From: Escherichia coli
GTDB taxonomy: Bacteria; Pseudomonadota; Gammaproteobacteria; Enterobacterales; Enterobacteriaceae
Assembly: GCF_029227855.1 (NCBI RefSeq)
Contig: NZ_CP074356.1
Length of the DNA stretch: 64,000 nt
Strand: one strand, 5' to 3'
The notes below the pieces were generated by a model, which saw only the letters and a program-made list of their open reading frames with translations, was not told the origin of the DNA and ran no database searches. Positions 1 to 13,983 of the stretch are shown here, piece by piece (the stretch's first letter is position 1; each line of letters begins with the position of its first letter). The position numbers and the translations under genes are program-made.

Positions 1-1328
1 TGACGCTGGGGAGCATTCGGTTGAATGCCTGAAAGATTGAAATTGCGTTGCCATATTGCGAGCTGTTTATCTGCAAATTCTTCAGTTAGCTTGTGTTGCG
101 ATTGCAGAAGAAGAATTAAACCGTCCCATTTGTTCAAGTTAGGATACAACCGACAATATGCGCAAGCATGTTTAACTGACGGTGCGTTTTCCAGCAACTG
201 ACGTATTTCCTCGAACGTGAGCGGAACTCGACACCATACACAGATGTTAACCATAAATCGAAGCCCGGAGGCGTCCGGGTTAGCCAGTGTGGTCAGAATA
301 ATCCCTTTGACACCACCATCAGGATTGGCTTTCGCAAGAATATACATAGCGGCTAATCGCAGTGGGAATACATCCTGTAATAATCCCCATTCTGCCAGTT
401 TTAAAATATTGGCATCATGAATGGAGTCCAGCCCGTATAAAGCTGCCCGGCGCTGTGAGGGAGTATATTCAGTCGAGGTGACAACATGACGCCAGAATTG
501 CGCAACATCCATGACGTCATTAAGCATGTTTTTAGCGCGTAGACGGATCAACATATTGTTATCCAGCAGTAATGCGCCGTACAACTCCGGAGGAATTTCT
601 ATAGCTCGGTCAGTAAGGCTAAACAACGTTGCTTGTCGAATACGCGGCCAGCGGTCTTTTAACAGACGAGTTAATACCGCTTCGCTTAACGGTAATTGTT
701 GACGCAGCCAGTGGGTGACCGCCAGCATTCGTAACCCTTCGTCGGGCTGCTTGAGTATTAAAAGCAGCGAAGATTCATCATTAAAGTAGCCATATTCAAT
801 CAGCGTTTGTAATACTGCGCGGGAGAGTTTTTTATCAGGGCAAGTAAGCCAACACGTTAATTGTGGACGGCTATTTTCTGTCAATAAAAATCTAAGTATC
901 TCGTCTACAAATGCACGGTGATCGTAACGCTGGCATTGGAGAAGGTTACGTATCATGGGAAGATTAACGGCAAATGCCGCTGCATTCTTACCCTTCTTTA
1001 AATGACGTAACGCTATGGTTGCAGCAAGGCGAACCTCTTTTACCCAGTCATTAGCTGCAAGTAATAATTCTTCTATAGCTGCAACATCCTCTTTTTGTCC
1101 CAGACATTGCACGGCCTTTTCTCGTATATATCCATTGTGGTGATAGGTAAGCTGGCAAAGAACCAGAGTATTGTTGAGATCACAATCATGCGCTATATAA
1201 TTGCCTGGATCGGCTATCATCGCCTGGAGTTGTTGCTGGATAAGAAATAATTCACAGTCAACAGAATTATTCATTTCGACGTTAAACAAAACCCTGCGTG
1301 TAAATAATGTACGCAATCCTTTGAGCAT
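1..1328 (-). CDS. Hypothetical repeat-containing protein, partial (C-terminus lies beyond window start); possible HEAT/armadillo-like repeats
   Basis: Hand translation of the minus strand from ATG at 1328..1326 (MLKGLRTLFTRRVLFNVEMNNSVD...) stays open for about 442 codons to position 1; AAGGAA Shine-Dalgarno about 5 nt upstream and an in-frame TAA stop 6 codons upstream. Absent from the supplied ORF track, presumably because it has no stop inside the window. Recurrent ~30-40 aa Leu/Ala-rich units. Does not resemble K-12 YegQ, which occupies this position in K-12. Confidence 0.55.
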   Translation of the reverse strand, partial: MLKGLRTLFTRRVLFNVEMNNSVDCELFLIQQQLQAMIADPGNYIAHDCDLNNTLVLCQLTYHHNGYIREKAVQCLGQKEDVAAIEELLLAANDWVKEVRLAATIALRHLKKGKNAAAFAVNLPMIRNLLQCQRYDHRAFVDEILRFLLTENSRPQLTCWLTCPDKKLSRAVLQTLIEYGYFNDESSLLLILKQPDEGLRMLAVTHWLRQQLPLSEAVLTRLLKDRWPRIRQATLFSLTDRAIEIPPELYGALLLDNNMLIRLRAKNMLNDVMDVAQFWRHVVTSTEYTPSQRRAALYGLDSIHDANILKLAEWGLLQDVFPLRLAAMYILAKANPDGGVKGIILTTLANPDASGLRFMVNICVWCRVPLTFEEIRQLLENAPSVKHACAYCRLYPNLNKWDGLILLLQSQHKLTEEFADKQLAIWQRNFNLSGIQPNAPQR

Positions 1329-1450
1329 AATTTTCCTTATCAGTTATGAGGAGAAAACTCATTTCATGATTAATAATTTCTTGAGGGATAGTAACTCTGT
1401 GATGAGAGAAAATAAAGCCGGACGCCAACAACACGCGCCCGGCATCGTAA

Positions 1451-1783
1451 TTACGTATTGTCTTTTACCGTCTGGCTTGTGCCATTGGCTTTAACGGAGG
1501 CAATTCCGGTTTCACGAGATTGCGCGGTGGCGTACATTTGGCTGGAGCCGATAATTTGATGATTGGCGGCTTTCAGATTGAAATAGAATTTGCCGTTGCT
1601 TGCCGTTTTTTTCTCATAGCGTTCTTCTTGCGGGCTGTTGCTACGCACCGACGCGATACCCTTTTCCGCAGAGGCTTTTGAGGTATACAGCTCGCTGGTG
1701 AGGATAGTCTCACCATTGCCCGCTTTTAGCACAAACCGGAACTGATTATCACTGCTCTTACTGAGTTCAAACCAACCAGCCAT
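1451..1783 (-). CDS. yegP: UPF0339/DUF1508 family protein YegP
   Basis: Translation MAGWFELSKSSDNQFRFVLKAGNGETILTSELYTSKASAEKGIASV... matches remembered YegP (110 aa); AGGAG Shine-Dalgarno 7 nt upstream of ATG at 1783. The ORF-track 5' extension to 1822 is rejected. Confidence 0.8.
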   Translation of the reverse strand: MAGWFELSKSSDNQFRFVLKAGNGETILTSELYTSKASAEKGIASVRSNSPQEERYEKKTASNGKFYFNLKAANHQIIGSSQMYATAQSRETGIASVKANGTSQTVKDNT

Positions 1784-1962: not shown

Positions 1963-2685
1963 TTAAACGATGCGGCAGGCGTCGGCTTCCCAGCGGTAAC
2001 CGACGCCGTAAACGGCACGGATAAAGGACTGTTCGGCGTCGAGAGATTCCAGCTTGCGACGCAGGTTTTTAATGTGGCTGTCGATGGTGCGGTCGGTTAC
2101 TACGCGGTAGTCGTCATAAAGATGATTGAGCAATTGCTCGCGGGAGAACACTTTTCCTGGTTCATGAGAGAGCGTTTTCAGCAGACGAAATTCCGCAGGC
2201 GTCAGGTCAAGCATTTTTCCGCGCCATGAAGCCTGAAAACGACCTTCGTCGATAATCAACGGGCTTTCAGCATCCTGTTGCTGCAACTCACGCTGCGGTT
2301 TGCAACGGCGCAAAATGGTTTTGACGCGCGCTACCACTTCCCGTGGGCTGTACGGCTTGCAGATATAATCATCTGCGCCAATTTCCAGCCCCAGCAGGCG
2401 GTCGATCTCTTCGATTTTTGCTGTCACCATCACGATCGGAATGTCAGAAAAACGACGAATTTCCCGACACAGCGTCAGGCCATCGGTGCCAGGGAGCATC
2501 AGATCCAGCAGGATCAGATCCGGTGGTGTCTGGCGCACATACGGCAGTACCTGATCGCCGTGGCTAATCAACGTTGGCGCATAGCTCGCAGCACGCAGAT
2601 AATCAATGAGTAACTGCCCCAGCTTCGGTTCATCTTCCACGATCAAAATACGCGGTGTGTTTTCGTCGATTGGTAACTCGGTCAT
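1963..2685 (-). CDS. baeR: OmpR-family response regulator BaeR
   Basis: 240 aa; receiver domain ([13 protein letters not shown]...[14 protein letters not shown]) plus winged-helix output domain; 4-nt overlap with baeS upstream. Confidence 0.95.
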
Positions 2686-4085
2686 ACTTCTCTCTGTAAA
2701 TCCCGTTCCAGCGGTAACTCTACTGTAATGCTTACCCCGCCAAAAGGCGAATGGGCAGCAATAATGCGGCCATTATGGGCTTCAACAATGTTCAGGCAAA
2801 TCGCCAGCCCCAGCCCGGAACCGCCGCTGGCGCGGTTGCGGGAGCCTTCGGCGCGATAAAAACGTTCAAACAATTTTTGTAGCTGATCGTCACTGACGCC
2901 CGGCGCGCTGTCGGCAAAGGTCAGTCGCACCGTTTTGTCGTGCTGCTCGGCAGAGATTTTCAGGCTGCCGCCGCTGTCAGTGTAGCGCAGGCTGTTTTCA
3001 AGTAAGTTATTGAATAACTGCATTAAACGGTCGCGATCGCCAAATACGGTAATACTGTCTGGCAGGGAGAATTGCAGTTTCAGGCCACGGCTGGCAAATC
3101 GTTCGCGAAATGCGCCGCCCGCTACTTCCAGCAGTGGGATCAAATCTACCGGTGCTTTTTGATAGGCGAGAGCGCCTTCATCAGACATCGACAACTGATG
3201 GAGATCGTCAACCAGTTTGGTCAGTGTACCGACCTCCGCCTGTAAAGACGCCACCGTCTCCGGCGTGAATTTACGCACGCCATCCTGAATGGCTTCCAGT
3301 TCACCGCGCAGCACCGCTAATGGCGTACGCAGTTCGTGAGAAATATCGGCCATAAAATCGCGGCGCATTTGCTGGTTTTTCTCCAGCGTGCTGGCGAGCT
3401 GGTTGAAGTCCTGCGCCAGTTTGCCCAGTTCATCTTCACTGGTGGGCGTCACGCGGGTTGTGAAATCGCCCGCCGCCAGTTTGTGCGTGCCGTCCACCAG
3501 CCGTTTGACCGGGGCCAACAGACCACGCGCCAGCAGAAAGGTGGCGAGCGCCGCGAGTAACGTTGCCAGGGCGACAATCAGCCAGCTGGTTTGCCGCTGT
3601 TGTTTATCGAAATTGATATCAGTATTGCGGGTCAGTCGCTCAACAGGGGAGGCAATCACCGCACCCACTTCCGCACCGTTGACCAGAATGGGTCGCCGTG
3701 TACCGTCAGGTGGAATCGGCGCTCGCGGACCAACCAGCACCTTGTTGTTTTGATCAACCACCCAGAACTGAGTACGCCAGCCGTGCGGCGGCATACCCGG
3801 GCCGGGTTTATCTTCCGAATTATCGTGTTCAAATGAACGCAGGATCTGAAAGACAAAGCGATCGTTGTTGCGCAGGAAGCGCCAGTTACCATGCTGCGCA
3901 TACTGCTCGCCAAGCGCATCACTTAACAGCTGTAATCGCTGTTCATTGCCGTGTTTGATGTAATCAATAAAGCCACGCTCAAAACTGATACGCACCGCCC
4001 AGTGCATACTGATCAGCAAGACAATGCAGGTGGCGAAAATCGCCAGAAACAGTTTGCCGGTAATACCAGGTCGCCAGAACTTCAT
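2682..4085 (-). CDS. baeS: Sensor histidine kinase BaeS
   Basis: 467 aa; N-terminal TM segments, H-box ([24 protein letters not shown]) and HATPase G-boxes (GGSGLGLAI). Confidence 0.95.
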
Positions 4086-12998: not shown

Positions 12999-13016
12999 GC
13001 CAATAAGGGAGAAAAA
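12999..13016 (-). promoter_or_regulatory. Candidate BaeR-binding box in the mdtA promoter
   Basis: Minus strand reads TTTTTCTCCCTTATTGGC, close to the reported BaeR consensus TTTTTCTCCATDATTGGC, about 55 bp upstream of the mdtA start. Confidence 0.5.
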
Positions 13017-13175: not shown

Positions 13176-13320
13176 AACGGGAAAGCCCCTCCCGAGGAAG
13201 GGGCCATAAATAAATAAGGAAAGGGTCATGATGAAGCTACTCATCATCGTGGTGCTCTTAGTCATTAGCTGGCCAGCTTACTAAGACTACCAGGGCGGGG
13301 GAAACCCCGCTCTACCCTCA
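13176..13320 (-). ncRNA. Sib-type antisense sRNA, copy 1 (antitoxin of ibs)
   Basis: Minus-strand promoter TTGACA (13355..13350), 17-bp spacer, TACTTT (13332..13327); transcript fully overlaps ibs copy 1; GC-rich hairpin (13186..13205) followed by a U-rich stretch on the minus strand. Ends are approximate. Confidence 0.5.
13228..13284 (+). CDS. Type I toxin Ibs, 18 aa hydrophobic peptide (MMKLLIIVVLLVISWPAY)
   Basis: ATGATG start followed by a hydrophobic 18-codon ORF, typical of Ibs toxins, preceded by AAGGAAAGGG. Confidence 0.75.
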   Translation: MMKLLIIVVLLVISWPAY

Positions 13321-13506
13321 CTCCTGAAAGTATGCCTTCACGATAAGATTGTCAATCTGCAGGCTTTGCAGTCTGCGATCCTGCCAGCAAATATTCTTTG
13401 CGAGACGTTACGCAATAATCACACTGGAAACTATTTTATCCGCAAGTCAGCGATAGACTGCATACAGGGCGAAAGGAGGTAAGCCGACGATTTCAGCGGG
13501 ACGCTG

Positions 13507-13648
13507 AAACGGGAAAGCCCCTCCCGAGGAAGGGGCCTTAAATAAGGAAAGGGTCATGATGAAGATACTCATCATCGTGGTGCTCTTAGTGATTAGCTAC
13601 CCAGCATACTAAGACTACCAGGGCGGGGGAAACCCCGCTCTACCCTCA
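13507..13648 (-). ncRNA. Sib-type antisense sRNA, copy 2
   Basis: Same architecture as copy 1: minus-strand TTGACA (13683..13678), 17-bp spacer, TAATTT (13660..13655); hairpin plus U-rich 3' end near 13507. Ends are approximate. Confidence 0.5.
13556..13612 (+). CDS. Type I toxin Ibs, 18 aa (MMKILIIVVLLVISYPAY)
   Basis: Paralogue of copy 1 at the same position in repeat unit 2. Confidence 0.75.
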   Translation: MMKILIIVVLLVISYPAY

Positions 13649-13835
13649 CTCCTGAAATTATGCCTTCACGATAAGATTGTCAATCTGCAGGCTTTGCAGT
13701 CTGCGATCCTGCCAGCAAATATTCTTTGCGAGTCGTTACGCAATAATCACAGAGGAAACTATTTTGTTCACGCGTTAGCGATAGACTGCATTCAGGGCGA
13801 AAGGAGGTAAGCCGACGATTTCAGCGGGACGCTGA

Positions 13836-13983
13836 AACGGGAAACCCTCTCCCGGAGAAGAGGGCTTTTAATAAGGAAAGGGTTATGATGAAGCACGTCA
13901 TCATACTGGTGATACTCTTAGTGATTAGCTTCCAGGCTTACTAAGAACACCAGGGGGAGGTGGAAACCTCTCCCTAACCCTCA
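13836..13983 (-). ncRNA. Sib-type antisense sRNA, copy 3
   Basis: Minus-strand TTGACA (14018..14013), 17-bp spacer, TAATTT (13995..13990); diverged hairpin CCCTCTCCCGGAGAAGAGGG. Ends are approximate. Confidence 0.45.
13885..13944 (+). CDS. ibsA: Type I toxin Ibs, 19 aa (MMKHVIILVILLVISFQAY), IbsA-like
   Basis: The 19-aa peptide matches the remembered IbsA sequence; it is the most diverged of the three copies. Confidence 0.7.
   Translation: MMKHVIILVILLVISFQAY

Follow-up and report, generated by a model that had tools for sequence, protein, structure and literature searches.

Helical-repeat proteins are known from rather different bacterial systems. DSR2 senses a phage protein via HEAT repeats (PMC11263360). 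The rtc operons are known to have recruited a helical-repeat protein that binds RNA, Ro/Rsr (PMC3854526). In Pseudomonas, the order of genes in such an operon is rtcR/rtcB-rlaP-rtcA (PMC12776372).

The gene described here lies at the edge of a 64,000-nucleotide stretch of Escherichia coli DNA (NZ_CP074356.1, hereafter the window). The window is the mdtABCD-baeSR-yegP region of E. coli, in reversed orientation relative to K-12. The edge frame is a real, intact gene, 95% of which is within the window. In the reading favoured here, it encodes a basic HEAT solenoid and sits, between baeSR(-yegP) and trhP, in a slot of long standing from which it is being lost in E. coli; the ligand of the solenoid would belong to RNA repair. 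Taken as a whole, this reading has roughly even chances.

The gene at the edge of the window

The first-pass annotation of the window had described a minus-strand frame of at least 442 codons that starts at 1328 and runs off the end. When the reverse complement of positions 1 to 1328 is translated by machine, it gives 442 codons and zero stops from an ATG at 1328-1326, in agreement with this. The good Shine-Dalgarno sequence that had been noted is also there, with its AAGGA core at 1338-1334, 5 nt from the ATG. The start is further backed by an N-terminal "L(T/S)R" segment that is conserved in the enteric subfamily. The ORF list had skipped the frame because the listing tool leaves out frames that are still open at the end of the source, which accounts for the gap in the track that had been pointed out. 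Other genes on the same strand in the ORF list are yegP, baeR, baeS, mdtD, and mdtC.

Among 5,426 complete E. coli genomes searched by megablast, strain JNEC-KY178 (NZ_AP045174.1) has 100%-identical DNA, and the sequence was extended past position 1 by means of this genome, as had been proposed. The complete gene is 1,401 nt long and has a product of 466 aa (L001 19928-21328 in the identical genome), which RefSeq lists under WP_275877614.1 as "HEAT repeat domain-containing protein". All that the window lacks is the final 24 codons and the stop, in the 73 nt beyond position 1. The remainder of the gene was therefore rightly expected there, but no large island follows it. The HEAT gene is followed by a convergent gene, whose hypothetical 201-aa product has a signal peptide, and then by an intact trhP. 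The features of this part of the window are collected in Table 1.

A promoter scan found no sigma-70 consensus promoter upstream of the HEAT gene. Likewise, no BaeR box (TTTTTCTCCATDATTGGC) is found upstream of it within 3 mismatches. The sole match in the window at this threshold is the mdtA promoter (12999-13016), which served as a positive control. Membership of the HEAT gene in the BaeR regulon was rejected, the box being absent upstream and the mdtA control box having been recovered.

Table 1. Features at the edge of the window (positions are those of the window).
Feature	Position	Strand	Basis
HEAT-repeat gene, codons 1-442 of 466	1..1328	-	Open frame, 100% identical full gene, Pfam HEAT_2, AlphaFold2 solenoid
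Start of family-specific C-terminal cap, residues ~396-442 (continues outside)	1..142	-	60-sequence alignment, per-helix conservation
Core of ~11 PBS-type HEAT repeats, residues ~56-395	143..1163	-	31-residue period, conservation on helices, alphaRep/CpcE/YibA profile matches
Region 5' of the HEAT gene, cargo-specific	1329..1416	-	In all HEAT-bearing alleles, not in K-12-type empty sites; junction mapping
Shine-Dalgarno AAGGAA	1333..1338	-	Read from the sequence; 5-6 nt 5' of ATG 1328
yegP intrinsic terminator, hairpin GCCGGGCGC...GCGTCCGGC then TTTATTTTC	1408..1443	-	Terminator scan; L001 21429-21417 = window 1429-1417
yegP, conserved flank on the baeR side	1451..1783	-	ORF list and RefSeq annotation of the identical genome

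Repeats, fold, and conservation of the protein

The Leu/Ala-rich, HEAT-type helical repeats that had been suspected from the letters alone are borne out by autocorrelation at lag 31, by Pfam HEAT_2, by PDB profile matches, and by an AlphaFold2 solenoid. Leucine accounts for 16.8% of residues and alanine for 8.8%. BLOSUM autocorrelation over the repeat core is highest at lag 31 (z = 4.8) and shows the harmonic of this period at 62 (z = 3.2); repeat starts are 28-41 residues apart, mostly 31. Pfam HEAT_2 matches the window protein at E = 4e-4 and 55 of 60 family members at E<=1e-3 (best 6e-11), and Pfam yields only HEAT/ARM-type families across these 60. The best PDB matches of a profile of 60 relatives are alphaRep (down to 1e-44), CpcE (5.5e-10), and E. 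coli YibA (1oyz, 6.5e-8). Whether the query was the protein sequence alone or the family profile, searches of PDB sequences returned repeat-type matches only.

AlphaFold2, run with the family alignment, predicts an all-helical solenoid of 29 helices (mean pLDDT 92.7, pTM 0.84) in which residues 1-19 are disordered. The fold matches of this model are generic (alphaRep, YibA, and PP2A-A). Matches in the AlphaFold database are unnamed "HEAT repeat domain-containing proteins" of Proteobacteria, Firmicutes, Planctomycetes, and others.

Along the repeats runs a ladder of Asp...Val/Ile-Arg...Ala positions (D93/R99, D195/R199, D224/R230, D255/R261, and R323), each kept in at least 87% of members. The invariant Asp and Arg positions mostly belong to the canonical HEAT-PBS ladder and are therefore structural. 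Other conserved positions are specific to the family. The C-terminal cap, which is outside the generic HEAT motif, has the invariant or near-invariant residues K399, W400, W425, N430, P436, and Q440. Further examples are W94 and, in a CxRxDH loop, R133/H136. The window copy keeps 8 of 8 family-invariant residues and all 19 positions conserved in >=90% of members.

The family is basic, with a median pI of 9.2 and 88% of members above pI 8; the window protein has a pI of 8.8. Searches against Pfam, NCBIfam, and PHROGs found no catalytic or effector domain in the window protein, and the latter two gave nothing meaningful at all. The protein is predicted to be a cytoplasmic, basic, non-enzymatic alpha-solenoid consisting of about 11 PBS-type repeats and a C-terminal cap. 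Since it has no catalytic or effector domain, such a protein would have to act by binding.

The window protein is a PBS-type HEAT-like repeat protein that belongs to a distinct full-length family, annotated by RefSeq in generic terms. An exhaustive phmmer search against 1.84 billion cluster representatives gave 1,614 matches at E<=1e-3 and 481 at E<=1e-10. At 50% identity, the family comprises at least 481 clusters across many phyla, and the sole annotation for all of them is "HEAT repeat domain-containing protein". Matches are collinear over residues ~55-450 and fall into two size classes, one of ~440 aa and one of ~540 aa with an extra helical N-terminal region of ~100 residues. No description of this family, or of a HEAT gene in rtc operons, was found in the accessible literature. 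It is a large and widespread family that has never been characterised, and the only recurring partners found here are rtcB and rlaP. The neighbours of most members are unrelated to each other, and the gene is typically solo. For the 540-aa class and other distant members, there were no shared neighbours in the contexts examined.

The variable gap between yegP and trhP

The first-pass annotation correctly held that the edge protein is not YegQ. A U32 peptidase match is absent, and the genuine trhP (=yegQ) is found elsewhere. However, yegQ has not been replaced. In the identical genome it is intact, 838 bp past the end of the HEAT gene. What had been called a synteny break at the window edge amounts to the presence or absence of one gene beside an intact yegQ.

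Across E. coli, the gap between yegP and trhP can be empty (K-12 and many others), or filled by ParDE, by a PcfJ-DUF1266-DUF4034 island, by the HEAT gene, or by combinations of these. It is a compact variable spot with fixed junctions and at least four cargo states. The right-hand junction is marked by the hairpin of the yegP terminator, whose 3' arm lies at ~1417; from ~1410-1417 of the window onwards, the sequence is again homologous with the K-12, ParDE, and island variants. The other junction precedes the trhP start by ~91 bp (...GGGCGGGCATTGTAGCGC/, the slash marking the junction). Both are common to all states of the gap. All filled states share an extra ~30 bp (AATCGGCGGGGTTGGCTCCAGTG...), in place of which K-12 has a 21-bp collapsed filler. 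Neither an integrase nor direct repeats, nor any other signature of mobility, could be seen at the junctions.

In most carriers, the HEAT gene stands alone between yegP and trhP. An example for this arrangement can be found in strain M160133. In strain Ecol_AZ147, the HEAT gene lies beside a 52-aa ParD remnant. The gene for the 201-aa protein accompanies the HEAT gene in only 5 genomes, and its product is 87.5% identical to that of the last gene of the PcfJ-DUF1266-DUF4034 island that fills the same gap in strain 9.

Two functional pairs were considered and rejected. The HEAT gene and the gene for the 201-aa secreted protein occur together in only those 5 genomes, and the latter comes from a different island. 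ParDE and the HEAT gene each occur without the other.

Distribution, decay, and age in E. coli

The first-pass annotation had suspected a strain-specific gene, and strain variability is indeed what is observed. Of 5,426 complete E. coli genomes, 96 have any trace of the HEAT gene and 39 have it at full length, which is not the distribution of a common conserved E. coli gene. In at least 8 of the 39 full-length copies, a single A->T change turns K112 into a TAG stop. In the remaining 57 genomes, the gene is reduced to its 3' 878 nt or 308 nt, beside one or two copies of IS1; in one of them, the IS1-associated deletion also took yegP.

Homologues of the gene fill the same slot outside E. coli. 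In contigs of other Enterobacteriaceae, proteins with 59%, 42%, and 38% identity are found in the order baeR -> HEAT -> trhP -> yegS, and BaeR and TrhP in these contigs are 90-92% identical to those of E. coli. A further homologue in this slot is present in the Enterobacteriaceae MAG UBA3516. The genome collection was scanned for relatives with a 9-sequence subfamily alignment and two exact peptide patterns, and the resulting taxonomic list is a lower bound. The slot between baeSR(-yegP) and trhP/yegQ, common to E. coli and other Enterobacteriaceae, is probably old.

The sequences of the E. coli alleles can be compared with those of the flanking genes. Between alleles, dS is 0.03-0.17 for the HEAT gene and 0.07-0.56 for yegP, baeR, baeS, and trhP. 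The non-synonymous divergence of the HEAT gene is 5-20 times above that of its flanks, and its dN/dS of 0.24-0.51 compares with 0.00-0.05 for the flanking genes. The ratio is 0.51 for the closest alleles, 0.24 for deeper ones, and 0.14 to the homologue with 59% identity.

A check of base composition had also been proposed. It gives a mixed result: the HEAT gene is AT-shifted in E. coli (GC 44% and GC3 41%, against 53-54% and 59-64% in the flanks), but its GC tracks the flanks in other genera. An old transfer could explain the low GC in E. coli, as could relaxed selection.

The best reading of these comparisons, rated well above a recent insertion, is that in E. coli the HEAT gene would be ancestral, fast-evolving, dispensable, and repeatedly lost. 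The K-12 arrangement looks like a deletion state, because homologues hold the slot elsewhere, dS is not above that of the flanks, and there are many independent inactivations. On the same grounds, the word "insertion" in the first-pass annotation probably has the wrong polarity. Most E. coli appear to have lost the gene. In this reading, loss is going on piecemeal, by a nonsense mutation, by IS1 insertion with deletion of adjacent DNA, and, for K-12, by deletion of the whole gene. Since the nonsense, IS1, and full-deletion states can all be found, the gene clearly illustrates how an old gene is lost step by step. The edge feature itself matters little, being an ordinary presence/absence polymorphism of an accessory gene that is already annotated in RefSeq.

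Association with rtcB and rlaP

In some relatives, the HEAT gene is the last gene of an RNA-repair operon under RtcR control, in the same orientation as rtcB and close to it. The arrangement rtcB-rlaP-HEAT with a divergent rtcR is found in a locus between ppiC/rep and ilvC (L034), in L013-15, and in Pectobacterium polonicum (L025). In P. zantedeschiae (L026), rtcB is followed by the HEAT gene after a 17-bp gap. Given the order of genes in the Pseudomonas operon, the HEAT gene thus occupies the usual place of rtcA. Across these loci, RtcB is 84-88% and RlaP 72-74% identical, and the HEAT protein only 38-49%; the arrangement has therefore been conserved over substantial divergence. The HEAT gene is the fastest-evolving member here too. 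This variant of the operon is previously unremarked.

The association is found in part of the family. RtcB is present in ~4 of roughly 11 distinct Enterobacterales contexts. In P. betavasculorum, an orthologous gene (84-87% identity) occurs without rtcB. The HEAT gene of the window is not adjacent to rtcBA, and the pairing with rtcB is absent in most other genera.

The HEAT gene of Enterobacteriaceae adjoins trhP, which has a role in tRNA modification. This fits a tRNA theme and may be a coincidence.

As far as sequence and gene order go, the recurring rtcR/rtcB-rlaP neighbours weakly suggest an RNA-binding role in RNA repair. The basic charge of the protein is compatible with the binding of nucleic acid, and is not proof of it. 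Because of this charge and the rtcR/rtcB-rlaP-HEAT operons of three Enterobacterales lineages, we infer that the ligand of the solenoid would most likely be damaged RNA (fragments of tRNA or rRNA) or the repair proteins RtcB and RlaP. The HEAT protein may then assist RNA repair of the RtcB/RlaP type in some lineages, and in E. coli it would have been orphaned from this partnership, under relaxed selection and dispensable. Such a mechanism is tentative, and doubtful overall. If the link holds, the family provides a further component of this pathway, for which substrates and accessory factors are currently being established.

A broader version of this idea takes the whole family to be an undescribed accessory of RtcB-type RNA repair. 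Its members would be basic, Ro-like proteins that bind damaged tRNA or rRNA, or recruit RtcB and RlaP, and would substitute for RtcA in rtcR/rtcB-rlaP-HEAT operons; the E. coli copy beside trhP would be a decaying orphan. This version is unlikely.

Alternative explanations

Under the view closest to the first-pass annotation, the gene would have reached the yegP/yegQ junction by horizontal transfer, as a strain-specific island or replacement, and K-12 would show the original state. The rarity of the gene in E. coli, its low GC relative to the flanks (44% vs 53-54%), and a gap that takes varied cargo (ParDE, PcfJ-DUF1266-DUF4034, HEAT) at identical junctions speak for this. However, trhP is intact and nothing was replaced, the junctions have none of the mobility features looked for (integrase, direct repeats, mobility genes), and the GC of the gene follows that of the host in other genera. 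The same gene in the same slot of other Enterobacteriaceae, a dS between E. coli alleles that does not exceed that of the flanking genes, and multiple independent decay events also argue against acquisition, which is quite improbable. Decay could be taken further, to a functionless relic whose frame is open in some E. coli only through too little elapsed time. The repeated inactivation, the dN/dS of 0.51 between the closest alleles, the AT-shifted composition, and a promoter scan that found no recognisable promoter fit a relic. Yet the 466 uninterrupted codons keep all 8 invariant residues and all 19 of those conserved in >=90% of members, the Shine-Dalgarno sequence is good, and the lower ratios among deeper alleles (0.24) and to the 59%-identity homologue (0.14) indicate that purifying selection has acted. 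A relic carries the same low probability as an acquired island.

The protein could also belong to a conflict system, either as a stand-alone anti-phage sensor or decoy, or as an orphan protein conferring immunity to a polymorphic toxin, as the HEAT-like YibA in an Rhs locus might suggest. This would agree with the fast evolution of the gene, with the presence of ParDE at the same hotspot, with the fold resemblance to YibA and CdiI, and with a weak PADLOC match to HEAT-ARM_XIII (E = 9e-7). But that match spans 180 of 1,972 profile positions, which indicates generic repeat similarity, and YibA and CdiI score no better than designed repeat proteins. An effector domain is absent, as is any adjacent toxin, Rhs, CDI, or effector gene in E. 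coli and ~15 other contexts; dN/dS is below 1, and the hotspot's ParDE and HEAT genes are found independently of each other. A conflict role has no better prospects than the two views above. The ancestral gene in the course of being lost is the preferred reading, and its part on identity and evolution is highly probable.

Comparison with known systems

The window protein most closely resembles the PBS-type HEAT-like proteins (Pfam PF13646/PF03130, clan CL0020), such as the natural family behind alphaRep and the CpcE/F bilin lyases. It has the HMM match, the two-helix repeat of ~31 residues, and the D/R ladder of this group. Compared with alphaRep and CpcE/F, it is longer (~11 repeats), and the C-terminal cap and the CxRxDH loop are its own. 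E. coli is without phycobiliproteins, and a role as bilin lyase is not expected.

YibA of E. coli (PDB 1oyz; 280 aa, rhsA locus) shares 8% identity with the window protein in a structural alignment. It is ~60% as long, lacks the C-terminal cap, and is encoded at a different locus. Beside the window gene there is no Rhs or toxin neighbour, and the likeness is one of repeat type, not of orthology. Polymorphic-toxin immunity proteins of the YibA/CdiI kind are expected to have a cognate toxin upstream, which is absent here.

DSR2, in which an N-terminal SIR2 NADase effector is fused to a C-terminal HEAT sensor, has the helical-repeat architecture in common with the window protein. A SIR2 or other effector domain is absent from the latter (Pfam, NCBIfam, and PADLOC). 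In PADLOC, only positions 582-761 of the 1,972 in the HEAT-ARM_XIII profile are matched, with 24.7 bits. As evidence of defence this match was rejected, being partial and generic to HEAT-ARM proteins.

YegQ/TrhP, the tRNA U34 hydroxylase of the U32 peptidase family, is encoded on the same strand and, in K-12, in the same place right after yegP. It is an unrelated protein; Pfam and NCBIfam searches gave no Peptidase_U32 match (PF01136 / PF16325) for the window protein.

For function, the rtcR/rtcB-rlaP-HEAT loci suggest an analogy with Ro60/Rsr, an RNA-binding ring of HEAT repeats that is likewise encoded in RtcR-controlled RtcB operons (rtcR-rsr-rtcBA; Das & Shuman 2013, PMC3854526). Its TROVE and vWA domains are absent from the window protein and 60 relatives (Pfam). 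The gene order differs as well, the Ro/Rsr gene being upstream of rtcB and the HEAT gene of the relatives downstream of it.

Variable Contents of the yegP-trhP Gap

The gap that holds the helical-repeat (HEAT) gene also receives other cargo. In many E. coli it contains a ParDE toxin-antitoxin pair, which in strain GF66.1 carries a frameshift in ParD. In one HEAT allele lineage a ParD remnant of 52 aa adjoins the HEAT gene, and the contig of the 59%-identity homologue (L005) has the order HEAT-ParD-ParE-trhP. This order suggests an older arrangement of HEAT together with ParDE.

Just outside the window lies a gene for a 201-aa protein, for which a family match was not found. Its DNA is 87.5% identical to the last gene of the PcfJ-DUF1266-DUF4034 island that occupies the yegP-trhP gap of E. 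coli strain 9 (L018), an identity that marks it as a leftover of cargo other than the HEAT gene.

The HEAT gene can also be lost in part. Truncated remnants are marked by IS1A copies; strain DA33133 has two IS1 copies, and yegP itself is deleted.

Differences in Flanking Genes

On the 59%-homologue contig yegP is replaced by a gene whose 228-aa product gave no family match, and on the contigs of the 38-42% homologues the yegP position is without any gene. Therefore, yegP is not a fixed part of the slot between baeR and the HEAT gene.

A second presence/absence difference from K-12 lies close to the gap. In K-12 the P2-remnant gene ogrK is present beyond yegQ (now trhP), whereas in the window strain trhP is followed directly by yegR and ogrK is not annotated. 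In the identical genome (L001), the mdtA-yegL interval is annotated with three tandem Ibs-family toxin genes.

For baeS, dS between the window strain and the carrier M160133 is 0.56, against 0.16 for the carrier AZ147 and 0.1-0.2 for neighbouring genes. The raised value suggests a recombinant patch in the M160133 baeS. A near-perfect BaeR box upstream of mdtA served as positive control for the BaeR-box search.

Coordinates of features in the window and in comparison loci (L-numbers)
Feature	Location	Remarks
228-aa protein in place of yegP	L005 7310-7996	between baeR and HEAT gene
ibsA and two relatives (type I toxins)	window ~13228-13944 = L001 33228-33944	
ogrK comparison	L001 17388-17728 vs L016 1-430	
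WP_096931894.1, hypothetical	L001 19292-19897	signal peptide; convergent; ~100-700 bp past window position 1
PcfJ-DUF1266-DUF4034 island	L018 1-4561	same gap
baeS comparison	window 2682-4085 vs L002 7682-9085	
BaeR box TTTTTCTCCCTTATTGGC	window 12999-13016	minus; 1 mismatch
ParDE-related loci	L017 1894-2489; L004 4749-4907; L005 9531-9967	yegP-trhP gap
IS1A at HEAT remnants	L036 2694-3391; L037 2124-3597	
rtcR/rtcB-rlaP-HEAT	L034 1190-6353; L025 1-4797; L026 2950-7332; L013 1-4361	

An rtc Operon Variant

In Enterobacterales, a HEAT-family gene also occurs in an RtcR-controlled operon variant, rtcR/rtcB-rlaP-HEAT, found in three chromosomal contexts. Across its loci RtcB is 84-88% identical and RlaP 72-74%, but the HEAT protein only 38-49%. 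Neither the RlaP preprint nor the operon survey of Das & Shuman (PMC3854526) mentions this variant, in which the HEAT-family gene takes the slot held by rtcA in the operons of E. coli and Pseudomonas.
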